Below are positions 9,460-61,298 of a stretch of DNA of 64,000 bases, one piece after another (position 1 is the first letter of the stretch; each line of letters begins with the position of its first letter). This stretch comes from an uncultured Candidatus Saccharibacteria bacterium. Its GTDB lineage: Bacteria > Patescibacteriota > Minisyncoccia > Phycocordibacterales > DATDWN01. The stretch is taken from the NCBI GenBank assembly GCA_964426735.1, contig CAYRRP010000001.1, positions 157,226 to 221,225 on the forward strand. Direction: 5' to 3'. The notes below the pieces were generated by a model. It had not been told where the DNA came from and did not search any database. It saw only the letters and a program-made list of their open reading frames with translations. A program made the translations under genes and the position numbers.

Positions 9460-9491
9460 GGTAGTAGAATTAAGAATAATAGTAATTGGTG

Positions 9492-9561
9492 TTTACATAG
9501 GGTACCCCTATGTAAACAATGTTTGTATAAGAGATGGATACATAGGGGTACCCTATGTAAA
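9492..9561. repeat. inverted pair of a 21-bp REP-like palindrome (TACATAGGG-TACC-CCTATGTA at 9494-9514 and 9539-9559), 24-bp spacer
   Basis: read directly; each copy is a near-perfect palindrome with a GGG/GGGG asymmetry, the two copies are reverse complements of each other. Confidence 0.8.
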
Positions 9562-9573
9562 GAAAAGTTAAAG

Positions 9574-9871: not shown

Positions 9872-9926
9872 TCTAACAGTGAAGTTACTCTATAAAAATA
9901 GATTTGTCAAAACAAATGGTTATATA

Positions 9927-9965
9927 ACAGATTTTACATAGGGGTACCCTATGTAAAATCTGTTA
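9927..9965. repeat. third copy of the 21-bp palindrome, here with extended arms (39-bp palindrome AACAGATTTTACATAGGGGTACCCTATGTAAAATCTGTT) abutting the dnaK -35
   Basis: read directly. Confidence 0.8.
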
Positions 9966-15228: not shown

Positions 15229-15729
15229 ATGGGAATAACCAAAAAGATACTACTTATTTTTATTGGATTAATTTTTGTCGTAGCAAGTGGATTTGGTGGT
15301 TTTTATGTAATACAAAAACTTTTTATTACAAAGGCAGACATATTAGATCAACCAAAAGTGAGTACGGTATCTACTATAGAAGTAGAACGTGATGTATATA
15401 ACAAAATTCCAAAAGATTTTCCTAAAAATCTCATTCCTGAAGATGATATAGTTTCAATTATCGAAAGTTTTACAGTATCGGATACCCCAGAAAGAAAGCA
15501 ATACACTGTACGTTATATTAGTAAAAAAAATATTGCTGAAAATCAAAAATATTTTGAAACGTATGTAGCAAAAACCCCTGGTTTTTCTCTGACAACAGAT
15601 TTTTTAACAAATTCAACAACATTCTTATCAATGGGCATACGTAACAAAAAAACAGAAATAAATATTACAGTTAATTTAAATCAACAGTACGGGTATATTG
15701 TTGATGTAACAATGTTGCAACAACTATGA
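15229..15729 (+). CDS. small membrane-anchored protein (N-terminal TM, about 130-aa extracytoplasmic domain); partner of downstream giant gene (TGA/ATG overlap)
   Basis: paralogous to 19371-19847 (shared VESF.V....QYT.RYI.K motif and architecture). Confidence 0.55.
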   Translation: MGITKKILLIFIGLIFVVASGFGGFYVIQKLFITKADILDQPKVSTVSTIEVERDVYNKIPKDFPKNLIPEDDIVSIIESFTVSDTPERKQYTVRYISKKNIAENQKYFETYVAKTPGFSLTTDFLTNSTTFLSMGIRNKKTEINITVNLNQQYGYIVDVTMLQQL

Positions 15730-18700
15730 AAAAAAACTTTTTTGCATTAATAGTTATTTTTTTTATTAGCTTTGGTTTTTTTGATTTACCTGTAGTAGAA
15801 GCTCAGAGTTGTTCAAATGTTGGTTATGATTCTTGTGGAAACTATACGTCTCGGTCTTGTAGTGGTGCTACAAGTTGTTCGGTTACAGATTTAGGAAATG
15901 GATCTTGTTACCAAACATGTACATGTCCAGTTTTAACCCTTCAAGGTTCTAGCTTCAGTGGATGGACATCAGGAACGTTTCAAAATGGACAACAGTTTTG
16001 TACAGCTATGTACGAGGGTCCTGCATGTCAGATAAGTGGTGGTAGTGGAGCATCTATATCTTTTCCTGCATACGCTTGTGGTACTGTAAACAACAATCCT
16101 TCATCAGTATGTAATAACAATGGAATTTGTGAATCTGGAGAAAACAGCACATATTGTCCTCTTGATGGTTGTCCTCCACCAACTTCATCTTTTTTTACAC
16201 TTTCTGTAAGTCCTGCAACAAGATCTGTTCTTAACGGAGAGCTTGCTAATTTCACTCTAACTATTACACCTTCAGTGTCTCCTACAACAGGACTTGGTGA
16301 TGTACGTGCTGTTGGTGCATACACATTACCTGTACCAATTCCTGGATGTCCAAGTGGAGCAACTTGTACATATCAAGGTGGTAGTAACACTATACAAGTT
16401 ACTGAAGATACAACTTCTGGAGGAGTAGATTTTGCTGTAGCAGCATCAAAAGGTGTCATTGTTGCACCTTCAACAGTAAGTCCAGCTACATATCAACTAA
16501 ATTTTTCAGCAGTAAATCCTTTTAACCAAACAAAAACCGCCACCGCCACCCTCATCGTAAGCTCAGGTATAAACGGAGCAACCTGTCTCTCTATCGACTC
16601 TCAAGTAGGAGGTGTATCAACATCATCATTCTCTCCAGGACAACAATTTACTCTTGTTGCACGTCTACGTAATACAGGTACTAAAATATGGGACAACGTA
16701 TATACCAGTGCATCAGATCAAGAACATTTCCTCGGAGCATGGAATCCTGGAGGTGATCCATGGGGTCCAGGTTCTGGCAGAACACGCCTCCCAAACGGTA
16801 CTGCTATACCACCCAATGGGGAAGTAACCTTTACACGTACACTAACTGCACCTTCTACACCAGGTACCTATGATTTTCAGTTTGCTATCGTTGAAGATGC
16901 TGTTCAATGGATCACTGCACCTGGTGCTGTGTGTGTGAAGTCGGGAGGGGTGACGGTGGTTGCTTCTATGCCAAACCTTACTGCAGGTACTGTCACACCA
17001 ACAAGCACAAGTATAAACACTGCAACAACCTTTTCATCCACTATTTCAAACTCAGGTTCAGGATCAACAGGAGCATCTTTCTCAAACTTCTTTCAAGTAG
17101 CAACAGCAGCAAATGGAGGAGGTACTGTAACAGACCTTAGTGCTACCACCATGTCTACTCTCGCATCTGGAGCGACCGGCACAGCCACATCTCCGTCATA
17201 TACCTTTACTACAGCCGGAACATATTCGGTTCGTGCATGTGCAGATAAGACAAATTCATCAAATACTGGTTCAATTAACGAAACTAATGAAAGTGACAAC
17301 TGTGGAAGTTGGACGACAGTCACCGTAGGTAATGGTACAAACAACGCTTCATGTACTGCTATCACACCTTCAAAAACAACCGTAACTCCTGGTGAAGTAT
17401 TTAGTGCGAGTGTGACCATGTACAACAACGGAACAAACACATGGTCTCCAAACGACATGCGTGCTGATGTGAGTGGAGTAAATAACTATCATATTACTGT
17501 ATCACCATGGGCTTCCACTTGGAATTGGGGAAGAGCAGCGGTCTCATCAAACATAAATCCAGGGTCATCAACCACATTTACCATACCGCTTACTGCGCCA
17601 AGCACTGCAGGAACATATAACCTATCAACGCAAATGCTTCAAGAAGGTGTTGAGTGGTTTGGTGCATTATGTAATGCAGGGACAATTACAGTAAGTAACC
17701 CAAATACATGCGATCCTTCTGCGGTAGGAACAAACCAAATGGTTGGATGTGTGTATACAGGAATGAACTTTAACTCACTTGCACCCATATCAGCGTTGAC
17801 AGCTCCAGCTCTCTCAAGTCCTGCTCCATCATCAGCATCACCGTTACCATGGACAAACTGGGGCGGAGGAGGTCCTGGATCACTTACGGATAACTATTCA
17901 GTTCGATGGAAAGGAAATTTTAACTTTTCAGCTGGCAATTATACCTTCAGTGTTGATTCTGATGATGGATCTCGAGCATATTTTGACGACAATGGCGATG
18001 GAAATCCTGATAGTGGATATCTAGTGAGTGCGTGGTATGACCGTGGAAGTGGAGTTGTTGTATCTGGAAGCCCTGTTGCGGTGACAGCTGGAGTACATCG
18101 TCTTGTGTATGAAATGTATGAAAATGGTGGCGGATCAGTGTATAACTTATCATGGACAAGTACCGCACCTTCTCCGATTACGGTAAGTATATCTCCATAC
18201 TATACATCGATCACAAACTATCCAACCATCAGTGACAACAGTATCTACTGGACAACCACTGGAAACCCAGACTCGTGTACCACTTCAGGATCGAGTCCAT
18301 GGAGTACGGCAATCATTGTTCCTATTGCAAGCGGAAATCAATATCAAGGAAACTATCCAGGTACAGGAACATATACATACAACATCACTTGTACAAAATC
18401 AGGTGTGTCAAATGCGACAGCATCAATCACCGTACCTGTATCAAGTACACCTCTTCCGAGTGGAACACTTACTCCAGCTTCTCCGAGCTGTACAATAGCT
18501 TCTGGTGCAAGCTCATGTACTGTAAATCTCTCATGGACAACCACAAACCCTATCGGCACATCAGTACTAACCAGTAATACTTCAAACACAGGAGCATCAG
18601 CACCAAATACAACAGTCTCATCAGGAAACTCTGGGACAAACGTAGCAGTAACGGTGCCATACAGTAGCCGAGTGTTTACCTTGTATAACAACTCGTCACT

Positions 18701-19331
18701 ACTTGCAACAAGTAACGCTTCTGCAAGTTGCGTGAGTGGTACCACATGGAACGGAAGTATCTGTGCACCAAATACACCAATAACCGTAAGTATATCTCCA
18801 TACTATACATCGATCACAAACTATCCAACCATCAGTGACAACAGTATCTACTGGACAACCACTGGAAACCCAGACTCGTGTACCACTTCAGGATCGAGTC
18901 CATGGAGTACGGCAGTGATCAGTCCGATCAGTGGTGGGATGCAGTATCAGGGAAGTTATCCTGGGGTTGGAACTTATACATACAATATTACGTGTATGAA
19001 GGCGGGTGTTTTGAACGCATCTGCTTCTGTAAGTGTGGCTGTCTCTACTGCACCTCCAACACAATATACGATTACTGTAACAAGACCTGTTGGTGGAACT
19101 GTTACCACTGTAGACACATTCATCTCTTGTGGAGCAACCTGTACTCGTCAATATACAGGAGGATCAACCGTTACACTTCAAGCAGTTCCGAGTACTTCAT
19201 ATTGGAAATTTGTAGGGTGGGGAGGAGCATGTAGTGGTCAGGGTGTAGGAAACTGTACGATTACGGTATCAGGAAACACTGCAGTCACTGCAACATTTAG
19301 ACCTAAAGCACTTCTGTATCAAGAGTTCTAA
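15726..19331 (+). CDS. giant secreted Cys-rich surface protein (1201 aa): signal peptide, Cys-rich head, two Ig-like β-sandwich modules, PA14 domain, duplicated ISPYYTSITNYPTISDNSIYWTTTGNPDSC module, C-terminal InlB-B-repeat-like domain
   Basis: PA14-like segment YSVRWKGNFNFSAGNYTFSVDSDDGSRAYFDDNG...; C-terminal CGATCTRQY...VGWGGACSGQGVGNCTITV motif typical of divergent InlB B-repeat domains; S/T-rich low-complexity linkers. Confidence 0.8.
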   Translation: MKKNFFALIVIFFISFGFFDLPVVEAQSCSNVGYDSCGNYTSRSCSGATSCSVTDLGNGSCYQTCTCPVLTLQGSSFSGWTSGTFQNGQQFCTAMYEGPACQISGGSGASISFPAYACGTVNNNPSSVCNNNGICESGENSTYCPLDGCPPPTSSFFTLSVSPATRSVLNGELANFTLTITPSVSPTTGLGDVRAVGAYTLPVPIPGCPSGATCTYQGGSNTIQVTEDTTSGGVDFAVAASKGVIVAPSTVSPATYQLNFSAVNPFNQTKTATATLIVSSGINGATCLSIDSQVGGVSTSSFSPGQQFTLVARLRNTGTKIWDNVYTSASDQEHFLGAWNPGGDPWGPGSGRTRLPNGTAIPPNGEVTFTRTLTAPSTPGTYDFQFAIVEDAVQWITAPGAVCVKSGGVTVVASMPNLTAGTVTPTSTSINTATTFSSTISNSGSGSTGASFSNFFQVATAANGGGTVTDLSATTMSTLASGATGTATSPSYTFTTAGTYSVRACADKTNSSNTGSINETNESDNCGSWTTVTVGNGTNNASCTAITPSKTTVTPGEVFSASVTMYNNGTNTWSPNDMRADVSGVNNYHITVSPWASTWNWGRAAVSSNINPGSSTTFTIPLTAPSTAGTYNLSTQMLQEGVEWFGALCNAGTITVSNPNTCDPSAVGTNQMVGCVYTGMNFNSLAPISALTAPALSSPAPSSASPLPWTNWGGGGPGSLTDNYSVRWKGNFNFSAGNYTFSVDSDDGSRAYFDDNGDGNPDSGYLVSAWYDRGSGVVVSGSPVAVTAGVHRLVYEMYENGGGSVYNLSWTSTAPSPITVSISPYYTSITNYPTISDNSIYWTTTGNPDSCTTSGSSPWSTAIIVPIASGNQYQGNYPGTGTYTYNITCTKSGVSNATASITVPVSSTPLPSGTLTPASPSCTIASGASSCTVNLSWTTTNPIGTSVLTSNTSNTGASAPNTTVSSGNSGTNVAVTVPYSSRVFTLYNNSSLLATSNASASCVSGTTWNGSICAPNTPITVSISPYYTSITNYPTISDNSIYWTTTGNPDSCTTSGSSPWSTAVISPISGGMQYQGSYPGVGTYTYNITCMKAGVLNASASVSVAVSTAPPTQYTITVTRPVGGTVTTVDTFISCGATCTRQYTGGSTVTLQAVPSTSYWKFVGWGGACSGQGVGNCTITVSGNTAVTATFRPKALLYQEF
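16536..16960 (+). repeat. 425-bp block apparently 100% identical to 20525-20949 in the paralogous gene (encodes an Ig-like module ATATLIVSSG...KSGGVTVV)
   Basis: boundaries read base-by-base; identical encoded peptide and identical nested ORFs 16612-16827 / 20601-20816 in the ORF track. Confidence 0.85.
18182..18914 (+). repeat. intragenic direct duplication: 129 bp identical at 18182-18310 and 18786-18914, followed by diverged continuation (module repeated twice in gene 1, once in gene 2)
   Basis: read in sequence. Confidence 0.8.
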
Positions 19332-19852: not shown

Positions 19853-21508
19853 ATGAAAAAATACACACTTTTTATCATTAGTCTGGTTATAGCTTTCACC
19901 TTTTTCGGATTACCTAAAGCACTCAATGCACAGTCATGTAGTGATGAGTGTGCAATGTTTGGTACATGTAAAGCAAATTCGCGATCGTGTGGTGGTGAAC
20001 AGACATGTACTGTCAACAGTACCTATACAAATGCTGATGGAGAATCATGTACGGAGTACTCATGTAGTTGTGACAGTACAACCGTACAAGGTACATCATA
20101 CAGTGGATGTGTTGGTTCGTATCTACAAAGCAATCTCGAGTGTCAGTATTATGGCTCATTTTGTCAGTATACTGACCCTGTTCCATATGGATATATTCGT
20201 ACAGAATGTACTACATCAGGTAATGAAGAAACACAGACAGATTTTTCTATCACTCTATCGCCAAACACACGAAGTATTGTAAATGGAGAAACAACCGTAT
20301 TTTCAGTTACTATTGCGCCAATCAGTAATGTAGACGGTCGTACTCTTTCGATGTCAGTATCCGGATGTCCTACAGGAGCTACATGTACTCTCAGTGGTGG
20401 GAATACCGCAACATTTGCAAACCCTGCAGTAGCTCTTACAAAAACACTGACGATCACTTCTACATCTGCTCAACCACACACATACACAATCACTGTAAGT
20501 GCCACAACAAACAACGTGACCCGCACCGCCACCGCCACCCTCATCGTAAGCTCAGGTATAAACGGAGCAACCTGTCTCTCTATCGACTCTCAAGTAGGAG
20601 GTGTATCAACATCATCATTCTCTCCAGGACAACAATTTACTCTTGTTGCACGTCTACGTAATACAGGTACTAAAATATGGGACAACGTATATACCAGTGC
20701 ATCAGATCAAGAACATTTCCTCGGAGCATGGAATCCTGGAGGTGATCCATGGGGTCCAGGTTCTGGCAGAACACGCCTCCCAAACGGTACTGCTATACCA
20801 CCCAATGGGGAAGTAACCTTTACACGTACACTAACTGCACCTTCTACACCAGGTACCTATGATTTTCAGTTTGCTATCGTTGAAGATGCTGTTCAATGGA
20901 TCACTGCACCTGGTGCTGTGTGTGTGAAGTCGGGAGGGGTGACGGTGGTATCAGGAAGTCCAATTACAGTAAGTTTGGCAGCATACTATCCATCGATCAC
21001 AAACTATCCAACCATCAGTGACAACAGTATTTACTGGACAACCACCGGCAATCCAGACTCATGTACGCCATCAGGATCAGCTCCATGGAATACTGCAGTG
21101 ATTAGTCCAATCAGTAGTGGCAACCAATATCAAGGAAATTACCCAGATACAGGCACATATACATACAACATCACCTGTACAAAAGCAGGTGTACCAAACG
21201 CAACAGCATCTGTCACTGTACCAGTATCGCGCGTATCTCAGTATACCCTTACCGCAATCAAGCCTATTGGTGGAAGAATTGTTACAGCTGATGCACATAT
21301 TTCTTGTGGATTTACATGCAGTCACCAGTATGCCGAGGGTTCATCAGTTATACTTCAAGCTATTCCTGATACTACATACTGGAGATTTGTAGGGTGGGGA
21401 GGAGCATGTAGTGGTCAGGGAACAGGGAATTGTACGGTTACAATGAACGGAAATGTAACCGTAAGTGCTCAATTCAAGCCTCGATCTCTCTTTTATCAAG
21501 AATTCTAG
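19853..21508 (+). CDS. second secreted Cys-rich surface protein (551 aa): different Cys-rich head, shared identical Ig-like block, one ISPYY-type module, C-terminal InlB-B-repeat-like domain
   Basis: signal peptide MKKYTLFIISLVIAFTFFGLPKALNAQ; shares 425-bp identical block and C-terminal ...YQEF end with 15726-19331. Confidence 0.8.
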   Translation: MKKYTLFIISLVIAFTFFGLPKALNAQSCSDECAMFGTCKANSRSCGGEQTCTVNSTYTNADGESCTEYSCSCDSTTVQGTSYSGCVGSYLQSNLECQYYGSFCQYTDPVPYGYIRTECTTSGNEETQTDFSITLSPNTRSIVNGETTVFSVTIAPISNVDGRTLSMSVSGCPTGATCTLSGGNTATFANPAVALTKTLTITSTSAQPHTYTITVSATTNNVTRTATATLIVSSGINGATCLSIDSQVGGVSTSSFSPGQQFTLVARLRNTGTKIWDNVYTSASDQEHFLGAWNPGGDPWGPGSGRTRLPNGTAIPPNGEVTFTRTLTAPSTPGTYDFQFAIVEDAVQWITAPGAVCVKSGGVTVVSGSPITVSLAAYYPSITNYPTISDNSIYWTTTGNPDSCTPSGSAPWNTAVISPISSGNQYQGNYPDTGTYTYNITCTKAGVPNATASVTVPVSRVSQYTLTAIKPIGGRIVTADAHISCGFTCSHQYAEGSSVILQAIPDTTYWRFVGWGGACSGQGTGNCTVTMNGNVTVSAQFKPRSLFYQEF

Positions 21509-35985: not shown

Positions 35986-36017
35986 AAATGACCCGCACTT
36001 GTTGCGGGTCATTTTTA
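35986..36017 (+). terminator. rho-independent terminator after IMPase gene
   Basis: GACCCGCActtgtTGCGGGTC plus ATTTTTAT. Confidence 0.55.
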
Positions 36018-36020
36018 TCC

Positions 36021-36068
36021 TTTACACCCCCTTTTAAATATGATTAATTTATGAGGAGATTGTTCTTA
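36021..36068 (+). promoter_or_regulatory. promoter (TTTACA-N16-ATTAAT) plus 33-bp 5'-UTR segment AAATATGATTAATTTATGAGGAGATTGTTCTTA, exactly repeated at 37381-37413
   Basis: exact 33-bp repeat and same -35 geometry read in sequence. Confidence 0.5.
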
Positions 36069-36094
36069 AAATTCACAGCGAGAAAAAGGATGGC

Positions 36095-36646
36095 GTGACA
36101 ATGACATTCGATACTTACAAAACAGTTGTTCGAGAAAATTCTGGCTTTAGAGAAGTGGTGGAAGCGCTTGCAGGCCACTTTGCACTGGAGGTACCTGGAG
36201 GTTTTCCCACCCTTACGAATTGGTTTAGTCGCCACTATGTAGCATGGTCAACAACCTTCATTCACCAGAGTTACGATGATGTGCCCGCATCAGAAAACTG
36301 GACGGACTCACTATGTTTTCTTTCATTGATCGATCTAATGAAAAGCATAGGCACAGTGGCTCATCGTATAACTGAAGAGGAAAATGATCCCGTCTCATTA
36401 TTCAAGGGTGTCATCAGACGTTCCGAGAAGGGTTGTTTTCTTTACTTCCAGAACATTTTCACGGTGAAGCGCACCGAAACTAATAGTTACCATATAACCA
36501 TCCATAAGTACCCATCGGAGTTTTTTCACTTCATTGTTATGGATGATTCTGAGCTTCTCAGCTTCGTCGTCCGCAACCAGATAATGATTAATGGCGTCCA
36601 ACTGGAACTTCCGCCAGAAGCACACCTCAGTGACTTTACCGACTAA
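36095..36646 (+). CDS. hypothetical protein P1 (183 aa; GTG start), first of three tandem genes of similar size
   Basis: own promoter and palindromic terminator (36656-36693); shares NW(F/V)..R and C-terminal INGV.L motifs with neighbours. Confidence 0.5.
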   Translation: MTMTFDTYKTVVRENSGFREVVEALAGHFALEVPGGFPTLTNWFSRHYVAWSTTFIHQSYDDVPASENWTDSLCFLSLIDLMKSIGTVAHRITEEENDPVSLFKGVIRRSEKGCFLYFQNIFTVKRTETNSYHITIHKYPSEFFHFIVMDDSELLSFVVRNQIMINGVQLELPPEAHLSDFTD

Positions 36647-36655
36647 GATCCCCTA

Positions 36656-36693
36656 CCCCCGACCGATACATATCGGTCGGGGGTTGATTTTTT
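36656..36693 (+). terminator. terminator CCCCCGACCGATAcaTATCGGTCGGGGG plus T-run; diverged copy after P3
   Basis: read in sequence. Confidence 0.6.
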
Positions 36694-36750
36694 AATAAAG
36701 GAATGGTTTAGTGTATATCGAGAAGTTCATTTTTTGGAGGAATAAAACAA

Positions 36751-37324: not shown

Positions 37325-37362
37325 ACACCCCATCCGAGCTTCCGGATGGGGTGTAGTTTTTT
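37325..37362 (+). terminator. terminator ACACCCCATCCGagcttcCGGATGGGGTGT plus T6
   Basis: read in sequence. Confidence 0.6.
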
Positions 37363-37365
37363 ACC

Positions 37366-37413
37366 TTTACACTCAACACTAAATATGATTAATTTATGAG
37401 GAGATTGTTCTTA
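37366..37413 (+). promoter_or_regulatory. second copy of promoter/5'-UTR module (TTTACA-N16-ATTAAT plus identical 33 bp)
   Basis: read in sequence. Confidence 0.5.
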
Positions 37414-37426
37414 CGAAAGGTGTCTT

Positions 37427-37987
37427 GTGATAATAAATTTTTTTGAAGAATTTCCTGATGAGATCAAAGCATGGGTGAGGAGAGTTGTTTTGCAGATTGT
37501 GCGTTATTATAACAGCACACAACGACAATCAGAAGATACTCTGGACGTAGAAAAGTTTTTTAAACATTATCTGGAAACTTCCACATTTCAAAAAAGCTCC
37601 ACTTTCCCATCACCTATCAACGGAAGAAGAAATGCTTTTTTTCTTTTGTGGCAAGATGCTTCATGTAGTCATCCTACCCTTACACATAGCTTAATCCCTG
37701 GGACTACCTTATTTGCAGGAGATGAACCTCATAAGCTAGTACTGGATATCGCAGAGCACTGCTTGAGAGCCAACACTTCTGCTCACTTTATTGCGGTTAT
37801 ACATGTCGTATATCATCGCAACAGACAAAGCTACAACCATAACATCGATGTACATCTGCACACCGATGAGTATTATCACGAAGTACTCAGACACAACCCT
37901 GACCTGGCACGGAAACTCACAAATAGAGGCACACTCATCAATGGGGTACCCTTGAGGATTCCACAGAGACAAACTAACTCAATTTGA
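37427..37987 (+). CDS. hypothetical protein P3 (186 aa; GTG start)
   Basis: shares promoter module, terminator type and C-terminal LINGVPL motif with P1. Confidence 0.5.
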   Translation: MIINFFEEFPDEIKAWVRRVVLQIVRYYNSTQRQSEDTLDVEKFFKHYLETSTFQKSSTFPSPINGRRNAFFLLWQDASCSHPTLTHSLIPGTTLFAGDEPHKLVLDIAEHCLRANTSAHFIAVIHVVYHRNRQSYNHNIDVHLHTDEYYHEVLRHNPDLARKLTNRGTLINGVPLRIPQRQTNSI

Positions 37988-38029
37988 CCCCTTGGCCGAA
38001 TAATATCGGTCGGGGGTTGATTTTTTATC

Positions 38030-38578
38030 TCATTTCCCTTTCAATTTCTCCACCTCCTCTACCAGTTTTTTGAGTGTGTTTTGAATCATATCGAGATCAA
38101 TCTCTTTCTGCTTTTCTGCTTTCTGCTGCATAGTATCTGTGTCTTTTTCAATCTCATCGACATCAGTCTGGATTTCTTCGATATCTTCAGAAATTTCATC
38201 GACATCTTCCTGGATCACATCAATATCCTTTTCGATACCTTCAACATCTTCTTGGATTTCATCAACATTTTCCTGAATAACATCGATATCTTTTTCAATT
38301 CCCTCGACGTCTTCTTGGATTTCATCGACATCTTCTTTAATCTCTTCAATATCTTCCTCAACATCCTCCAAACTTTCTGTGTTTTGATTGACCGTCATCT
38401 GAATAAAAATAGCGAGATAGATCGCCTCAAGTGAGACAAGTGTCGTAAGGACAAGAAGTATCGTATCAAAAGCTACATCAAAGAAATACAATGAAAACAT
38501 TGCAATAAAAAAGACAGTATGAGCGACTACTGATGCTTTTGAGCCGACCCATTGTGTAAATTTTTTGTCCCAATTCAT
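38030..38578 (-). CDS. DUF1003-like membrane protein with C-terminal acidic coiled-coil tandem repeats
   Basis: N-terminal FD....LL.L..SL.A..LA..IQMT.NQ pattern like DUF1003; 22-aa repeats EDVEGIEKDIDVIQE(N/D)VDEI. Confidence 0.55.
   Translation of the reverse strand: MNWDKKFTQWVGSKASVVAHTVFFIAMFSLYFFDVAFDTILLVLTTLVSLEAIYLAIFIQMTVNQNTESLEDVEEDIEEIKEDVDEIQEDVEGIEKDIDVIQENVDEIQEDVEGIEKDIDVIQEDVDEISEDIEEIQTDVDEIEKDTDTMQQKAEKQKEIDLDMIQNTLKKLVEEVEKLKGK
38150..38346. repeat. 66-bp tandem repeats (about 3 units) inside DUF1003-like gene
   Basis: read in sequence. Confidence 0.7.
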
Positions 38579-39628: not shown

Positions 39629-40915
39629 TTACAACTCAGGGAGGTATTCCATTGGATCAAGATATGCTTTGATATCAGCAATCGGCATTTTTGCACTTTT
39701 ACATGCGCGACTATTTACATGATTTTCTACACGCACACCTTGAGATGCATATACTCCAAGGTGAAGATGTGGGCCTGTAGAGTATCCTGTATTCCCGCTA
39801 TACCCGATCACATCACCTGTTGCCACACTTTGACCCTCAACCGCTTTAATCACTGAAAGATGTCCGTACACAGATGAAAGTCCGTTGGGATGTTTGACCA
39901 TCACCCATTTTCCAAATGAATAACACCCTTTCACCAAATCAGTATTTCCTGTTCCTGCCACCACACCTTCAAGAACACTTTTTACTGGAGTACCTATTGA
40001 TGCTCCAAAATCAACTCCATTATGCGAACCAGATACATACAAACGCTTTGATGCAGAAGTCTTTCCGAAGCGTTGAGTGATAATCACCTTATCAAGTGGC
40101 CATGAGAGTACACCTGGACGAGAGCTTGGGAGACGTGTCGGATCAATCTCAAGTTGGAGTTGGGACTCATACGCAAACAATTCTTTTTCAAATGCAGCCT
40201 TTTGCTCTTCTTTTTGTTTGAGAAGTGTTTTATATGCAGCCTCAGTATTTTTTGTCTGAGCAAGTATTTTTGCTTTTTCTTGTTTATTATATTCAACTAT
40301 TTTTTTCTGATCCTCAAGGTTTTCTTGAAGCAACTTGAGTCGTTCTTTTTCTGCTTCTGTTTTTGTTTTTTTGTCAGCCAGGTTACCTTTAAGATCAACC
40401 AAATCTTCTGTTTTTATTTTGATTTGTTTTTGTACTTGCTTCACATTATCTATACCATTCCACATATCAGTAAATGTTTTGTATTGCAGGAAATTTTCTA
40501 TAGGTGTTTCTACTTCTGTTTGATACATTTGATTCATAAGCTCTTTGATCAGCTCTGTATTAAGCTCAATCTGCTGTGCAGTTGTCTTGATTGTACTTCC
40601 AAGTTCATCAATAGTAAGATTACTTTTACTTATTTTTCGTTCTGTAAGTGTTAAGTCGGTTGTTACTTTTTTTTGAGTCACATCGAGAGTCTTAATCGTA
40701 TTTTGGAGTGTTTTCGCCTCCTTTCCTACTCGCTCTACTTCTTTGTTGTAGAGATTTATCTCCGCTTCAAGAGCTTTAATCTGATTGTTTCGTTCCTCTA
40801 TTTTTGTTTGGAGTTCTTCAGCTTTGTTTTGTGCAAAAGTGATAGGTGTAAAAAAAAGCACACCAAGTAGACAAGCAAGAGCAATAAAAATGCTGTGAAG
40901 AGGATGTAAACGCAT
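39629..40915 (-). CDS. M23-family peptidase with long N-terminal coiled-coil (EnvC-like)
   Basis: HNGVDF and GNTGYSTGPHLHLGV M23 motifs; signal/TM then heptad-rich region. Confidence 0.8.
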   Translation of the reverse strand: MRLHPLHSIFIALACLLGVLFFTPITFAQNKAEELQTKIEERNNQIKALEAEINLYNKEVERVGKEAKTLQNTIKTLDVTQKKVTTDLTLTERKISKSNLTIDELGSTIKTTAQQIELNTELIKELMNQMYQTEVETPIENFLQYKTFTDMWNGIDNVKQVQKQIKIKTEDLVDLKGNLADKKTKTEAEKERLKLLQENLEDQKKIVEYNKQEKAKILAQTKNTEAAYKTLLKQKEEQKAAFEKELFAYESQLQLEIDPTRLPSSRPGVLSWPLDKVIITQRFGKTSASKRLYVSGSHNGVDFGASIGTPVKSVLEGVVAGTGNTDLVKGCYSFGKWVMVKHPNGLSSVYGHLSVIKAVEGQSVATGDVIGYSGNTGYSTGPHLHLGVYASQGVRVENHVNSRACKSAKMPIADIKAYLDPMEYLPEL

Positions 40916-44849: not shown

Positions 44850-44950
44850 TCTGTTAGAAATATGAAATCACAGATAACCTGCAACTCCTTTGTATATTAA
44901 TGTGTAATAATTCGACTTTCATACTCATTTGATTTCCGTTATTTCTAACG
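44850..44950. repeat. about 101-bp element with about 20-bp terminal inverted repeats (CGTTAGAAATAACGGAAATCA ... TGATTTCATATTTCTAACAG in gene sense) exactly filling the ftsW-stop / murG-start gap; second copy at 56016-56119
   Basis: both copies read base-by-base; shared internal blocks (GTCGAA.TATTACA, TTAATA, TATCTGTGAT). Confidence 0.75.
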
Positions 44951-44953
44951 CGA

Positions 44954-46087
44954 TTAGTGTTTTTTTCGTGCTGTTTTAGAAATATTTAAAATAATTCCCG
45001 CTTGAGCAAGTGTAATAAATAATGCAGTTCCTCCGTGACTGACAAACGGTAACGTAATACCCGAAAGTGGTAAAATTCCCACCATCGCTCCAATATTTAC
45101 AAACGCCTGCGATATGATGAGTATAACAATTCCCACAATCAAAAGTCTACCGAAGGGATCCGGAACAGACACAGCAATCTTGAGTCCACGTAATGCAAAA
45201 AATACAAATAAAAGCACCAATAACGTACTTCCAATGAAACCGAATTCTTCTGCAGAAACAGCAAAAATTGAATCCCCAATCGGTTCAGGCAAAAAATTAA
45301 ACTTCTGAATGCTTTGTCCAAAACCTCGACCATACAAACCTCCAGAACCGACTGCAATCAACGACTGCTGTATTTGATATCCACTTCCTTGTGCATTGTC
45401 TTGTGGACTCATAAATGTGGTGATACGTGCTTTGACGTACGGACGTGTATACGCCACAACCCCCAAACCAATAACACCAATTATTCCGAGCAGAAGTAGG
45501 TGTTTCCAGCGTCCACCTCCAGCGAGAAATACAGCAAACCCAGCTGATACCGCAACAATCAAGGTGTCTGTATCAGGTTGTGCAAGCAGTACTGCGCCGA
45601 CAATCCCTGTCACCACTACAAACGGCAAAAGTCCATGCGTAATTGTTTTTATATTTTCTTTTGCGCGTGCTACCCATGCAGCAAAATAAATCACATATGC
45701 GATTTTCAAAAATTCGGCAGGTTGAAATGAAATAACTTTAAATGTCACCCATCGTTTTGCACCTCCATGACTCAGACTGAGACCTGGTACAAATACGAGT
45801 AATGTGAGTACGACACCGATAATAAAGATGAAAAAAGCGTTTTTCTTGTAAAAATGAAAAGGGATTTTTGATGTCACTAGACATGCGAGAGATCCGAGAA
45901 ATAACCCGAAAAAAGTTTGGTTGAATGCGACGTTTGCATATTTAATGCTATTTTTTGAAAGCAATCCCAGTGACGCTGAGCTAAATATAAGAAAACCCGC
46001 CACCACAAGAATGATGAGTGAGATGAGAAAAGGGATGTCGACTTTGATGCCCGTCTTAAACATAAAAATATCAAAAAACTTAAGCAA
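44954..46087 (-). CDS. ftsW: SEDS-family peptidoglycan glycosyltransferase FtsW/RodA
   Basis: 10-TM SEDS pattern, ...PEPIGDSIFAV.AEEFGF... Confidence 0.85.
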   Translation of the reverse strand: MLKFFDIFMFKTGIKVDIPFLISLIILVVAGFLIFSSASLGLLSKNSIKYANVAFNQTFFGLFLGSLACLVTSKIPFHFYKKNAFFIFIIGVVLTLLVFVPGLSLSHGGAKRWVTFKVISFQPAEFLKIAYVIYFAAWVARAKENIKTITHGLLPFVVVTGIVGAVLLAQPDTDTLIVAVSAGFAVFLAGGGRWKHLLLLGIIGVIGLGVVAYTRPYVKARITTFMSPQDNAQGSGYQIQQSLIAVGSGGLYGRGFGQSIQKFNFLPEPIGDSIFAVSAEEFGFIGSTLLVLLFVFFALRGLKIAVSVPDPFGRLLIVGIVILIISQAFVNIGAMVGILPLSGITLPFVSHGGTALFITLAQAGIILNISKTARKKH

Positions 46088-47144
46088 TCATTGTTAATAT
46101 CGTTCCGAGTATTGCACACACAACCCCAATAATCCAATATCGCATAACGATTTTTTCACGTGACCAACCGAGTGCTTCGAAGTGGTGATGGAGTGGAGCG
46201 ACTCGAAACACTCGTTTTTTATTGAAATTTTTATACACAAAAATTTGAATAATTACGGAAAGCGTGGTGGCAACAAGCGGAACAGCGATAATAGGTAAAA
46301 ACAACACTGAATTTGTGAGAAATGCTACGACAGAGAGTGTGACGGTCAGACTCAAAATACCTGTTTCTCCCATATAAAATCGAGCGGGTGGGATGTTAAA
46401 CCATAAAAATGCAAGTGTCGCTCCCCCTACGACCGCACAGAATGCAGCAAGATCAATCTGGTTATTGAAATACGCAATCACACCATAGGCGGTAAAAATT
46501 GTCGCCATGATGCCTCCTGCGAGCCCATCCATACCATCGATTACACTCGTCGAAAATGTACCGAGCATAACTGCAATAAAAAAAGGTATAAAGAGTAATC
46601 CTAACTCAAGCTCACCTCCAAATGGTATGTGAATCGTTGTTGCTTCAAGTTTAATATAAAACCACAAACTAATAGCGAGTCCAATCAGTATAACCGAGAT
46701 AATTTTTATTTTTCTATACACAAGACCATCTTTTGCATATGATCCTTTGCCTGATATCTGGAGCATATCATCTACGAGTCCAATAAGTGCAGTTAGTACA
46801 AGTGTCGCAAGCGGTATCAGTGTTTGATTACGCGAAAGAAAGTTCAATTTTTCCGTGAGACTGTTGGGAAACAGTGCTGCCAACACAAACATAACTGCTA
46901 CAGTACATAACACAGAAAACCATATGATTACTCCACCGACTCGCGGAGTACTAATCTCTTTTGCTGTATTATGGATTCGATTAAATTCTTGTGATGTTGA
47001 TTCGGGATTATCGGATGCTGTTCGAGGATTTTTCTTCCACATCTTATACGCATAAAAATAATGCGTAAAAAACGGTGTTATCGTGATACCGATAATAAAA
47101 GAAAGAATGCTTGGAATGAGGACTTTGAGTACGTCGATGTTCAT
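46080..47144 (-). CDS. mraY: phospho-N-acetylmuramoyl-pentapeptide transferase
   Basis: VIDGMDGLAGG and PLHHHFEALGWSE motifs. Confidence 0.9.
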   Translation of the reverse strand: MNIDVLKVLIPSILSFIIGITITPFFTHYFYAYKMWKKNPRTASDNPESTSQEFNRIHNTAKEISTPRVGGVIIWFSVLCTVAVMFVLAALFPNSLTEKLNFLSRNQTLIPLATLVLTALIGLVDDMLQISGKGSYAKDGLVYRKIKIISVILIGLAISLWFYIKLEATTIHIPFGGELELGLLFIPFFIAVMLGTFSTSVIDGMDGLAGGIMATIFTAYGVIAYFNNQIDLAAFCAVVGGATLAFLWFNIPPARFYMGETGILSLTVTLSVVAFLTNSVLFLPIIAVPLVATTLSVIIQIFVYKNFNKKRVFRVAPLHHHFEALGWSREKIVMRYWIIGVVCAILGTILTMIA

Positions 47145-52386: not shown

Positions 52387-52431
52387 TTGAATACACCACC
52401 TCAGGTATTTTATACAAAAATACCCAGGGAA

Positions 52432-52491
52432 AATACATAGGGTACCCCTATGTATTAAATATGCTTGTTACATAGGGGTACCCTATGTAAT
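52432..52491. repeat. inverted pair of the same 21-bp REP-like palindrome (52434-52454, 52469-52489), 14-bp spacer, upstream of scpA
   Basis: read directly; sequences identical to the copies at 9494-9559. Confidence 0.8.
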
Positions 52492-52496
52492 AAAAA

Positions 52497-53618: not shown

Positions 53619-53849
53619 ATGTTTATTCTATTCCGCGATGGTGGGCGGGAAAGTATTGAATTTGCTGGGGTGTATAGCACCCTCAGCAACGCTATAGCCG
53701 CAGTACCTGCCAACATGGGGGACTGGATTATCGAGGTTGATGTCGACCCAAACCCGAGTCTGGAGTTTCGTTACAACAAACCTCCATCCACCCGGAGGTT
53801 TGAAATCATTTGTGGGAGGAAGGTTACCATTGATATTCTCACTCGGTAA
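53619..53849 (+). CDS. hypothetical small protein (76 aa)
   Basis: excellent SD; terminator 53856-53886 in + orientation; antisense ORFs lack these. Confidence 0.5.
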   Translation: MFILFRDGGRESIEFAGVYSTLSNAIAAVPANMGDWIIEVDVDPNPSLEFRYNKPPSTRRFEIICGRKVTIDILTR

Positions 53850-53855
53850 CCATGC

Positions 53856-53886
53856 GCCGGTGACCCTTTGGGTCACCGGCATTTTG
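53856..53886 (+). terminator. rho-independent terminator GCCGGTGACCCtttGGGTCACCGGC plus ATTTT
   Basis: read in sequence. Confidence 0.6.
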
Positions 53887-53964
53887 TATATATATTTTCC
53901 TTAGTACCCATTTTGGTGAAAATATTTCAAACCTCTTCCCTTCCTTATTTCATAATAAATTGTA

Positions 53965-56015: not shown

Positions 56016-56119
56016 CCTGTTAGAAATAGAACATCACAGATAGCTTTCTGTAATTCCTAAAAGTATTAACTTGTAATAGTTCGACGTAGTACGTAGTGAT
56101 TTCCGTTATTTCTAACGGG
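56016..56119. repeat. second copy of the TIR-bounded element, exactly filling the HAD-gene stop / tRNA-ligase start gap
   Basis: see 44850-44950. Confidence 0.75.
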
Positions 56120-56149
56120 ATCATACGAAAAATATACCACACCAACACT

Positions 56150-56899
56150 CTAAAGCCAAGATTGTATCAGTTTTTCTGTATGAGCTGGGTTTTGTACTTT
56201 TATACATTCTACTCCTGTAGAAATCGCTGGGTAATCATTACCCCCAGGAAACAAGGCATCTCCTACAAATATAATCTCCGCATCAGTAAGTTTCAAATAC
56301 TCTTGCAATCGGTCAATCGCTGTCGCTTTATTTGCACCTAATGCAGTAATATCGATAGTCGTCATACCTCCAATCTGGATATTAAACTCTGGAATTATTT
56401 TTTTGAGCTCTCGCACTATTTCTTCTCGTTTTTTATGATCCGAATCCCAAAGAGCTTTTACAGACACAGGTGCATTTTGTCCGAGGGCAGAAAAACTCAT
56501 TTGTGAACCTCGATCTTCAAGACGCTCTCCGTATATTTCCGCAGGAAAAACAATCGGAACATGATTGAGTACTGTAGAAAACGCATGTGTAATTTTTTGT
56601 TTTTCTTCGGGAGTAAGGTCTCTTGAAAATACACATGTCCACATATTATTTTCATAAACATACAGACGTGTACCTGATGTTGGCATCAAATACAGATTAT
56701 GAAAACAATCATGATGAGTAAATGGAGCAAGTACTTGCTTTTCAAATTGAGGAAAATTGCCTCCAGAAATAATTGCTACTTTTTTAATACTCAATAACCG
56801 CTCTACAAGCTCAACCATCGAGTGAGTGAGTGATGATTTACTCTCTGCAAGAGTCGAATCTAAGTCAAATATAATAAGTTTTGCTTCTGTAAAAGACAT
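56150..56899 (-). CDS. HAD-IIB hydrolase, eukaryotic-type phosphomannomutase-like
   Basis: IIFDLDSTL motif I, K..IISGG, GDALFPGGNDY motif IV region. Confidence 0.65.
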   Translation of the reverse strand: MSFTEAKLIIFDLDSTLAESKSSLTHSMVELVERLLSIKKVAIISGGNFPQFEKQVLAPFTHHDCFHNLYLMPTSGTRLYVYENNMWTCVFSRDLTPEEKQKITHAFSTVLNHVPIVFPAEIYGERLEDRGSQMSFSALGQNAPVSVKALWDSDHKKREEIVRELKKIIPEFNIQIGGMTTIDITALGANKATAIDRLQEYLKLTDAEIIFVGDALFPGGNDYPAISTGVECIKVQNPAHTEKLIQSWL

Positions 56900-60344: not shown

Positions 60345-61298
60345 TTAGTACAATTTTACTCCTATCACTTCCTTCACTTCTTCCATCTTCTTAATTGCTT
60401 TTTCTCGAGCACGTTGACCACCTTCTTTGAGCACATCAAGTACATAGTCCGTATCAGATGCGAGTTGAGCGCGTTTTTCACGCAGCGGTGTAATAAATGC
60501 TTTCAAGTCAACAATGAGAGCTTCTTTAAGAGCTTTATACTTTCCTTTGTTCTCTTCATACAAAGATGCTAATTCTGCCTCTGTTTTGAAAAGCTTATGT
60601 ATTGCGTATACGTTTTCAGGAACATCACCACCTGAATCAGTGACGATAGACATTACTGCTTTTTCTATCTCCGCGTCACTTGCGAAAAGTGGAATCGTGT
60701 TTCCATAACTTTTTGACATTTTTCGTCCATCAATACCCGGAACAACCGCAACTTCAGAAATAATTTTTGCTTCAGGAAGTTTCAAAACATCAGATGCAAA
60801 TACATGATTAAACTTAAGAGCAGTATCACGTGTATATTCAACGTGTTGTTTCTGGTCTTGTCCTACAGGTACTACATCAGTATCGTACAGTAAGATATCA
60901 GCAGCCATAAGCATAGGATAATTAAATGTCCCCACAGAAATCTCTTTATCTTTTGCCTCAGCATCTTTGTATGCATGAGCTCGCATCAAATACGGCATCG
61001 TAGTGATCGTATCAAAAATCCACGCAAGCTCAGTGTGTTCAGGAACATCAGATTGTTTAAAGATGAGTGATTTTTGTGGATCAAGTCCAAGCGCTAAATA
61101 GTCGAGGGCAAGATCAACAATCTGCTGTTTCATTTCTGTTTTATCTTGAGTCAAGTTGAGCGCATGATAATCAGCAATCATATACATTGCAGTATATTCA
61201 TCCTGCATATCTACAAACTGCTTCATTGCACCAAAATAATTACCAATATGTGGTCGTCCTGTTGGTTTTACTCCTGAAAGTAAGATTTTTTTGTTCAT
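60345..61298 (-). CDS. trpS: tryptophan--tRNA ligase
   Basis: KPTGRPHIGNYFGA (HIGH), KMSKS present. Confidence 0.9.
   Translation of the reverse strand: MNKKILLSGVKPTGRPHIGNYFGAMKQFVDMQDEYTAMYMIADYHALNLTQDKTEMKQQIVDLALDYLALGLDPQKSLIFKQSDVPEHTELAWIFDTITTMPYLMRAHAYKDAEAKDKEISVGTFNYPMLMAADILLYDTDVVPVGQDQKQHVEYTRDTALKFNHVFASDVLKLPEAKIISEVAVVPGIDGRKMSKSYGNTIPLFASDAEIEKAVMSIVTDSGGDVPENVYAIHKLFKTEAELASLYEENKGKYKALKEALIVDLKAFITPLREKRAQLASDTDYVLDVLKEGGQRAREKAIKKMEEVKEVIGVKLY

Follow-up and report, generated by a model that had tools for sequence, protein, structure and literature searches.

What kind of DNA ends exactly where an essential gene begins? In a stretch of 64,000 nucleotides from an uncultured Candidatus Saccharibacteria bacterium (contig CAYRRP010000001.1, positions 157,226 to 221,225; this whole stretch is the window below), two related segments, here W1 and W2, each stop at the start codon of a minus-strand gene, W1 at murG and W2 at aspS. 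A preliminary description of this DNA had left two answers side by side: a mobile element resembling a miniature inverted-repeat transposable element (MITE) that inserts at operon junctions, or a conserved structured 5' untranslated module that carries a promoter or translational control. We find that W1 and W2 are probably non-autonomous, MITE-like members of a family of hairpin-armed elements whose full-length relatives carry a GIY-YIG nuclease gene, and that they are probably tolerated through translational coupling. The mobile-element answer is well supported by hundreds of copies in Patescibacteria metagenomes, empty orthologous sites, target duplications, nested and tandem copies, and larger elements with a GIY-YIG gene. 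Four features that the preliminary description did not contain enter the argument: a small open reading frame (ORF), a duplicated start codon, a leaderless promoter context and the link to the nuclease gene.

A family of hairpin-ended elements on start codons

Both copies lie on the minus strand, as had been described. With their ends set (W1 from 44953 to 44850; W2 from 56120, or from 56124 if a duplicated ATGA is counted, to 56016) they measure 104 and 105 nt, and over an alignment of about 105 nt they are 83% identical. The 19-mer GATTTCCGTTATTTCTAAC, common to the two, has two exact occurrences in the window against a chance expectation of 0.02, and there is no third copy within the 64 kb. 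The downstream junction reads ...CTAAC-AG(A/G)-ATG in W1 and W2 alike, with CTAAC ending 3 nt 5' of the start codon, so the earlier statement that the copies end at the downstream ATG stands. The terminal inverted repeats are likewise real: CGTTAGAAATAACGGAAATCA pairs with TGATTTC(A/C)TATTTCTAAC(A)G, giving each copy arms of about 20 nt that form a long stem (RNA folding z-scores of -2.2 and -3.0). The internal blocks that the copies had been said to share are genuine too, and they encode a homologous small ORF, the sole ORF of each copy (24 and 34 codons). The parts are as follows, with gene identities (ftsW, murG, and aspS as the Asp-tRNA(Asn) ligase gene) assigned from NCBIfam.

W1, whole element: 44850 to 44953, minus strand, between the ftsW stop TAA (44956-44954) and the murG ATG (44849-44847)
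W1, 5' arm: 44930 to 44953, minus strand, T-CGC-GTTAGAAATA (44953-44940) and the inner stem strand ACGGAAATCA (44939-44930)
W1, small ORF: 44854 to 44928, minus strand, 24 codons and stop, MSMKVELLHINIQRSCRLSVISYF*, its TAA (44856-44854) within the 3' arm and 4 nt upstream of the murG ATG
W1, 3' arm: 44850 to 44870, minus strand, TGATTTCA (44870-44863), TATTTCTAAC (44862-44853) and AGA (44852-44850), then the murG ATG
aspS promoter (from a promoter scan): 56131 to 56159, minus strand, -35 TTGGCT (56159-56154), 17-nt spacer, extended -10 TGgTATATT (56139-56131)
W2, duplicated start ATGA (ATG1): 56121 to 56124, minus strand, repeating the first 4 nt of aspS (56015-56012)
W2, whole element: 56016 to 56120, minus strand, T-CCC-GTTAGAAATA ... 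TATTTCTAAC-AGG, adjoining the aspS ATG (56015-56013)
W2, 5' arm: 56096 to 56120, minus strand, T-CCC-GTTAGAAATA (56120-56107) and the inner stem strand ACGGAAATCAC (56106-56096)
W2, small ORF: 56020 to 56124, minus strand, 34 codons and stop from ATG1, MIPLEITEITTYYVELLQVNTFRNYRKLSVMFYF*, its TAA (56022-56020) within the 3' arm and 4 nt upstream of the aspS ATG
W2, 3' arm: 56016 to 56037, minus strand, GTGATGTTC, TATTTCTAAC (56028-56019) and AGG (56018-56016)

At their upstream ends the two copies differ. W1 sits in the ftsW-murG junction inside an operon, where the ftsW TAA is followed by a single T and then by the element, whose outer CCC has decayed to CGC. The earlier claim that each copy starts directly after the upstream stop codon therefore holds for W1 and fails for W2, which lies 25-29 nt beyond the stop of a HAD-hydrolase gene (56152-56150), behind a spacer that holds the promoter and the duplicated ATGA.

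How widespread is the element? An identical copy of W1 is present in locus L001, and a scan with the 19-mer returned three more copies in metagenome-assembled genomes of Minisyncoccia and Paceibacterota (Patescibacteria), all ending in ...TATTTCTAAC-GG(G/A)-ATG; judging by their record titles, we discounted 19-mer matches in contigs of Pseudomonas, Flavobacterium, Clostridia and Bacteroidia as chance. Searching with the arm-core pattern only (CGTTAGAAATA and TATTTCTAAC, 10-11 nt) gave at least 120 metagenome loci, chiefly from groundwater and sediment, and 0 matches among viral contigs. Across the family the base of the hairpin is near-invariant, CCCGTTAGA...TCTAACGGG, and the arms read CCCGTTAGA(A/G)(A/G)(T/C)... 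and ...TCTAACGGG; about 9 nt of each arm do not vary from phylum to phylum, and the interiors of different subfamilies bear no relation to one another. The elements form a mobile family with hairpin ends that occurs in Patescibacteria (the candidate phyla radiation, CPR, phylum Minisyncoccota) and other phyla. The 66 gene-adjacent copies fall into 55 sequence clusters, and the same arms occur in short variants with interiors of 20-45 nt and in long ones with 180-275 nt, as nested insertions (L112, L080) and in a tandem cluster (L061).

The three arm positions that follow the invariant core vary with compensation (GAAAT/ATTTC, GAGAT/ATCTC, GAAGT/ACTTC, GAGGC/GCCTC, GAAGC/GCTTC). Of the cells in 80 arm pairs 92% are paired; the compensatory changes at these positions are AU to GC (10 times and 2 times) and UA to CG (5 times), a covariation signal that is real and partly favoured by the complementarity on which the arm set was selected. 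Rfam 15 gave no match at gathering thresholds in the whole window, and around W1 only E-values of 2.5-4. Our literature search, which covered the motif, leaderless genes in connection with Patescibacteria and with MITEs, GIY-YIG genes in connection with inverted repeats, MITEs and CPR, and UPF0213, found no description, and the family appears to be undescribed. A separate observation concerns L061 (680-965), from an organism that uses Shine-Dalgarno sequences: there the hairpin units lie tandem and nested in one intergenic region, off the start codon.

The position of the element relative to genes is strikingly constant. In 66 distinct copies a long ORF begins exactly 3 nt after CTAAC, and the orientation to that gene is the same in 66 of 66, as it is for all nhmmer hits. 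The genes themselves span 102 Pfam families, including SecY, the ribosomal proteins S5, L24 and L9, sugar epimerases and tRNA ligases, and such a set of unrelated families is no regulon. At the other end of the element, 47 of the 66 copies have an ATG 6 nt upstream of the CCC that opens the 5' arm, and the two bases that follow this ATG agree with those of the gene, as in ATGCG/ATGCG, ATGGA/ATGGA and ATGAG/ATGAG. The target logo (A44 T45 G45 A35 R45 of 45) reconstructs a target of A-T-G-A (78%)-R (100%). In three copies (L010, L112, L121) one side carries GTG or TTG where the other carries ATG or GTG, and the short copy L037 (2320-2377) reads ATGAA C...G TGAA. These four cases suggest that the true duplication is TGNR and that the terminal A or G of the element rebuilds the start codon. 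Target-site duplication, which had been named as a thing to look for, is thus present in about 70% of the family (ATGNR/TGNR) and in W2 (ATGA), and is at most AT/AAT in W1 and five other copies of its kind.

If the copies are insertions, the same sites should be found empty, and they are. We followed MurG orthologues, from 95% down to 75% identity, to their contigs.

ftsW-murG junction in L159 (MurG 95%): TAA-TTTATCAT-ATG, empty
ftsW-murG junction in L131 (MurG 86%): 17-nt spacer, empty
ftsW-murG junction in L134 (MurG 77%): TAA-TAT-ATG, empty
ftsW-murG junction in L135 (MurG 75%): ATGA overlap, empty

At aspS, L130 and L131 lack the element and read TGTGGTACTAT-NTTTTT-ATGAATCGAAC; the window reads TGGTATATT-TTTCGT-ATGA-T[element]-ATGAATCGAAC. 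Comparison of the two places the insertion of W2 after nucleotide 4 of the aspS frame, with duplication of ATGA. We found no family member in the contigs of six relatives (L130-L135, about 110 kb), and the arm core, the feature checked there, is absent from the contigs L159 and L160. W1 and W2 are recent insertions.

The ftsW-murG junction also receives a different palindromic insert, of about 152 nt, in L130 (9848-10000), L132 (8112-8263), L133 (4209-4360) and L160 (8859-9011); its sequence is CGACTT.CAGAT.TGAGCAAAGTTC.CGAAGGAC ... GTCCGACAAAGAAATTT.CCA.AT.TG, and four other relatives are empty. This junction is a hot spot for hairpin insertions.

The small frame, the hairpin and the leaderless gene

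Why would an insertion on the start codon of a gene such as murG persist? The interior of the element offers a first clue. The frame that ends at the TAA of the 3' arm (TAT TTC TAA) runs for 20 codons or more without a stop in 52 of 66 copies, against 12 and 9 of 66 for the other sense frames and 13-23 for the antisense frames; by sequence cluster the open frame is found in 42 of 55, against 10 and 9. W1 itself is stop-free in this frame for 43 codons, compared with 13 and 3 in the other two, and its small ORF is homologous to those of L006 and L009 (the peptide of the latter is MKVEILRYNLNRNHNEVCVISYF). Between subfamilies the peptides differ, sharing only the arm-encoded ...(S)YF end. Since the peptides diverge and the frame stays open, it is openness that is selected and not sequence. 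Of the 47 copies with an upstream ATG, 15 (W2 among them) read from it in this frame without a stop as far as the arm TAA; of the others, two stop at a TGA overlapping the ATG of the gene, one makes an in-frame fusion and one runs out of frame past the ATG.

The second clue is the hairpin itself, whose stem extends past CCC/GGG to the A and U of the AUG of the gene. The base opposite this U is A in 49 of the 66 gene-adjacent copies, G in 16 and another base in 1 (in the arm-pair alignment, 50 A-U and 18 G-U pairs), a pattern that a purine preference in the target would yield as well. A G-U pair forms on the sense strand only, which fits a structure at the level of RNA, or of the sense strand. 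For the W2 transcript, the predicted fold pairs the 5' AUGAUCCC with GGAU of the aspS start. An intrinsic terminator was considered and rejected: no U-tract follows the main hairpin, and the one terminator-like match of the scan in W1 is an inner alternative hairpin.

The third clue is how the neighbouring genes appear to be translated. Many genes in the window have an extended -10 (TGnTATAAT) 6-8 nt 5' of their ATG and no Shine-Dalgarno sequence:

Leaderless-type starts, examples: 1447, 15229, 19371, 39629-40915, 46080-47144, 56150-56899, 60345-61298

Because the extended -10 lies so close to the ATG and most genes lack a Shine-Dalgarno sequence, the host genome appears to be largely leaderless, with leaderless mRNAs as its main mode. 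The aspS promoter conforms to this pattern, with its -10 ending 6 nt before ATG1, and the empty aspS sites in L130 and L131 show the same promoter arrangement. Across the family, TANNNT stands 5-8 nt before the upstream ATG in 20 of 47 copies (background 7.4%), and with the TG extension too in 12 of 47 (background 0.8%). From the promoter 6 nt before the duplicated ATG and this leaderless family context we infer that at W2 transcription begins at the duplicated AUG and continues across the element into aspS: after the element went in past nucleotide 4 of the leaderless gene, the unchanged promoter would start transcription at the duplicate, so that ATG1 (56124) is the predicted 5' end of the leaderless aspS transcript.

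Taken together, these clues suggest a relay. Ribosomes on the small ORF (20-40 codons) would melt the hairpin, in which the A and U of the AUG are otherwise paired; the small ORF would end at the UAA of the 3' arm, 4 nt before the AUG, and termination-reinitiation would hand the ribosomes to the gene. Such a relay would explain why the element is tolerated in essential operons of leaderless genomes poor in Shine-Dalgarno sequences. The siting on start codons would reflect a target preference for ATGAR together with the loss of all disruptive insertions, those on start codons persisting because the element regenerates the start and relays translation. The earlier idea of translational control survives in part, in that the stem reaches into the AUG, where it takes in the A and the U, and the stop of the small ORF lies 4 nt upstream of that codon.

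The same observations would also be expected of a leader RNA that the host selected as a cis-regulator (an attenuator, thermosensor or protein-binding hairpin) hiding the AUG, with the small ORF as its leader peptide. Pairing at the AUG, where G-U is tolerated and pyrimidines almost never occur, would suit it, as would a leader-peptide-like ORF that stops 4 nt before the start; and in the subfamily of the window the 5' GGAAAUCA and the internal AGGAAUCA are both able to pair with the 3' UGAUUUCC. What speaks against it is distribution and the pattern of conservation. The segment is missing from the same junctions in relatives with up to 95% MurG identity, it precedes 102 unrelated families, and it occurs nested and in tandem. 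Its stems are invariant and its interiors unrelated, the reverse of riboswitch-type conservation, with no Rfam match and no peptide conserved between subfamilies. We therefore consider a host-selected leader unlikely, and the conserved 5' untranslated module of the preliminary description, whose junctions are empty in relatives and in which stems and not loops are conserved, finds no support as such.

GIY-YIG nuclease genes with the same arms

If W1 and W2 are mobile and encode no enzyme, what could move them? At locus L012 the arms, in their GAGAT variant, enclose an ORF of 93 amino acids with a GIY-YIG domain. Relatives of this ORF number 7137 proteins at E ≤ 1e-10. The best 120 of the 7137 are 75-100% identical, spread across phyla and mostly 86 amino acids long, with named members from WOR-3, Planctomycetes, Scalinduaceae and Moraniibacteria. 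Among these same 120, [FY]L[ST]LTG is present in 110 and forms the exact C-terminal end in 79; FLSLTG is TTC CTA TCT CTA ACG GGG, that is, the 3' arm itself. The domain is PF01541, with a weak NCBIfam match to TIGR01453 (group I intron endonucleases) and no DNA-binding domain, and the nearest solved structure is the UPF0213 protein BH0048.

The layout is the same at four distinct loci: left arm, 4-9 nt, ATG and ORF, and a right arm that forms the last codons, with the stop after it. The ATG of the next gene follows 0-2 nt after the nuclease stop, and the armed genes are wedged between co-directional genes (ORF6N and an unknown gene, YgjP-like and RadC, BacA and FolD). With its stop 0-2 nt from the next ATG, the nuclease ORF of full-length elements would take over the relay role of the small ORF. 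Small copy and armed nuclease gene occur together on one contig at L012 and L144, and near its right end the window subfamily has GATTTCCTATTTCTAAC, a match to the 3' end of the nuclease gene, GTTTCCTATCTCTAAC. The family thus combines insertions on start codons, with duplication, a small frame kept open, and arms that also flank a family of GIY-YIG genes. The GIY-YIG protein may be the enzyme that mobilises the arms. Horizontal transfer of GIY-YIG genes from Patescibacteria has been noted (PMC12455944).

Other small GIY-YIG ORFs, about 40% identical to the armed family, lie beside tRNA genes at L025 (5607-5843), L056 (449-691) and L119 (1714-1929). We rejected them as members of the element, since tRNA-adjacent ORFs without arms form a subfamily of their own; the same organisms thus seem to carry a second family of mini GIY-YIG genes in another kind of place.

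Could the nuclease gene be a passenger instead? In that case the arms would be a palindrome of the repetitive extragenic palindrome (REP) or REPIN type, moved by a REP-associated tyrosine transposase (RAYT, an IS200/IS605-like Y1 enzyme) or by an ordinary transposase, and the GIY-YIG gene would be cargo or victim. The very short loops, tandem clusters and nested forms do resemble REP/BIME clusters, the arms do enclose varied interiors, and the distinct armed GIY-YIG loci inspected number only four. Yet the 3' arm lies within the conserved C-terminus of the nuclease in 110 of the 120 best family members, which points to long co-evolution and not to chance capture. In about 1.1 Mb of sequence, the stretches that separate widely spaced arm pairs hold ordinary genes only and no transposase ORF. 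The arm core CCCGTTAGA bears no GTAG-type signature, and target duplication is present, whereas IS200/IS605-type elements make none. We regard a REP-type origin as quite improbable.

Should the GIY-YIG protein indeed be the mobilising enzyme, the arms and the 86-amino-acid gene would constitute an undescribed superfamily of prokaryotic mobile elements, in which a minimal nuclease, and not a DDE, HUH, serine or tyrosine enzyme, moves a hairpin cassette. Such a cassette would target start codons and gene junctions, rebuild the start codon with its own terminal base and be made harmless by its relay ORF, and it could in this way enter even the operons for ribosomal proteins and the cell wall in minimal, leaderless genomes and pass from phylum to phylum. 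We put this wider proposal forward as possible and tentative.

Counter-evidence, significance and known systems

Several results weigh against a mobile element that is tolerated through coupling. No GIY-YIG gene is found in the 64-kb window by tblastn. The arm set was chosen for complementarity, which in part excludes broken pairs from the outset. The duplication varies between copies, from 2 to 6 nt across the family (4 nt in W2, 5 in most copies), and six copies, W1 included, read TAA-T|CCCG, so that the upstream stop abuts the arm and a duplication can be at most AT/AAT. The open small frame is absent in 14 of 66 copies. The upstream ATG is out of frame with an early stop in 28 of 47, and a uniform upstream ORF starting there was rejected on this ground, its frame not being conserved. 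Three further ideas were rejected. A two-step relay, in which the ORF from the upstream ATG stops where the small ORF starts, can be read cleanly in L009, L108, L120 and L080 and is not general. An internal leaderless promoter for the small ORF has about 10 good cases and no enrichment (10 of 63 against 7 of 42 for other internal ATGs). Descent of the small ORFs from the nuclease ORF is ruled out by a different frame and no sequence similarity.

Two more readings were weighed. According to the first, ribosomes start at the 5'-terminal AUG of the leaderless mRNA and hop over the hairpin to an identical AUG-NR landing site, a programmed bypass or shunt. AUGNR is matched on both sides of the hairpin, many upstream AUGs are leaderless starts, and with 28 of the 47 upstream frames ending early some other route to the AUG of the gene is needed. 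The upstream AUG is missing in 19 of 66 copies, W1 included, however; the open small frame would be left unexplained; and target duplication is the simpler source of the repeat. The gap would be about 110 nt, and the bypass gap of T4 gene 60 is about half of this. We judge such a bypass very improbable. Hardly credible, finally, is an invertible promoter (inverton) or integron attC-like site, as the inverted repeats of about 20 bp around a segment of about 80 bp directly 5' of genes, and the resemblance of GTTAGAA/TTCTAAC to the attC core GTTRRRY/RYYYAAC as read from the sequence, might suggest: the orientation to the gene is single in 66 of 66 copies and all nhmmer hits, the core order is reversed on either strand (5'-GTTAGAA ... 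TTCTAAC-3' against 5'-RYYYAAC ... GTTRRRY-3'), and the flanking genes are essential housekeeping genes and not cassettes. The inverton, the attC site and an element translated in frame within the host protein were rejected on orientation, motif order and frame statistics, respectively.

The window holds further repeats and palindromes. Five perfect palindromes of 22-23 nt, TTACATAGGG(G)TACCCCTATGTAA, lie at 9483-9570, 9924-9960 and 52423-52494, paired about 45 nt apart and just 5' of promoter-like TATAAAAT boxes; they look like the operator set of one regulator. On the minus strand, 53790-53940 lies in a gene-free stretch of about 250 nt, where the GC-rich hairpin GCCGGTGACCCAAAGGGTCACCGGC occurs with an inverted repeat of 11 nt, AGGTTTGAAAT/ATTTCAAACCT; it matches nothing in Rfam and could be a small RNA or another palindromic element. 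The 300 nt at 16536-16835 recur with 100% identity some 4 kb away, at 20525-20824; less similar repeats, about 80% identical and 280 nt long, begin the entries at 18174, 18777 and 20960. All of them lie in or beside very large ORFs (15726-19331 and 19853-21508). At 36012-36694 and 37357-38027 a duplicated upstream region and a likewise duplicated GC-rich terminator (CCCCCGACCGATACATATCGGTCGGGGG and a T-run) bracket two paralogous ORFs of about 185 amino acids; the gene has been duplicated in tandem together with its regulatory signals. The minus-strand ORF 38030-38578 contains, at 38121-38358, a coding repeat with a period of 21 nt that would give a 7-residue acidic protein repeat.

What would follow if the reading of W1 and W2 as coupled mobile elements is true? 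A selfish element would survive in genomes with almost no intergenic DNA by landing on essential start codons and paying for its place by ribosome relay. It would be a natural experiment on leaderless translation and termination-reinitiation in uncultivated Patescibacteria, and the cross-phylum 86-residue proteins annotated as "GIY-YIG nuclease family" would gain a testable role and a DNA partner, the arms. Gene callers would misplace starts or call spurious ORFs at such sites and miss the duplicated ATG and the small ORFs. The hairpin with its relay ORF could also serve as a portable coupling part where Shine-Dalgarno sequences are absent.

How does the family compare with known systems? It resembles in form the MITEs (Correia/NEMIS of Neisseria, ERIC, RUP), with which it shares a size of about 100 bp, hairpin-forming terminal inverted repeats, the lack of a transposase gene of its own, dispersed copies, presence/absence polymorphism, target duplication in most copies, probable co-transcription with neighbouring genes, and longer relatives with the same ends around a protein gene. 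It differs in inserting on the start codon, at a fixed distance of 3 nt and in a fixed orientation, with regeneration of the start; in an open small ORF that ends inside the 3' arm; in interiors that are unrelated between subfamilies; and in a candidate partner that is an 86-residue GIY-YIG domain alone and not a DDE or Y1 transposase. The Rickettsia palindromic elements are comparable as selfish palindromes of 100-150 bp tolerated at or in the genes of a reduced genome because they leave expression intact. They are translated in frame within the host protein, whereas here just 1 of 47 copies has an open in-frame fusion and the element lies outside the protein, with its own frame ending 4 nt upstream.

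Free-standing GIY-YIG homing endonuclease genes (T4 seg/mob and relatives of I-TevI) share with the full-length relatives the catalytic domain and a tight co-directional siting. The genes described here, in contrast, encode 86 amino acids and no DNA-binding domain, have inverted-repeat arms of which one is coding, and occupy many unrelated sites instead of one homing site; they also have gene-less deletion derivatives, the window copies among them. REP/BIME and REPIN-RAYT systems are alike in their single, doublet, clustered and nested hairpins with a conserved stem, and differ in that here no RAYT was found in the 1.1 Mb or so scanned, GTAG is absent, the hairpins stand at gene starts rather than behind genes, and the target is duplicated. 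Functional parallels are translational coupling and leader ORFs (ATGA and TAATG junctions, ermC-type leaders, fold-back inhibition in IS10 and IS50), in which an ORF likewise stops a few nt from the next AUG and a hairpin over this AUG would be opened by the translating ribosome. No ligand, stalling motif or conserved peptide is evident in the present family; unlike those systems, its module is portable, rides on a mobile element and serves leaderless genes.

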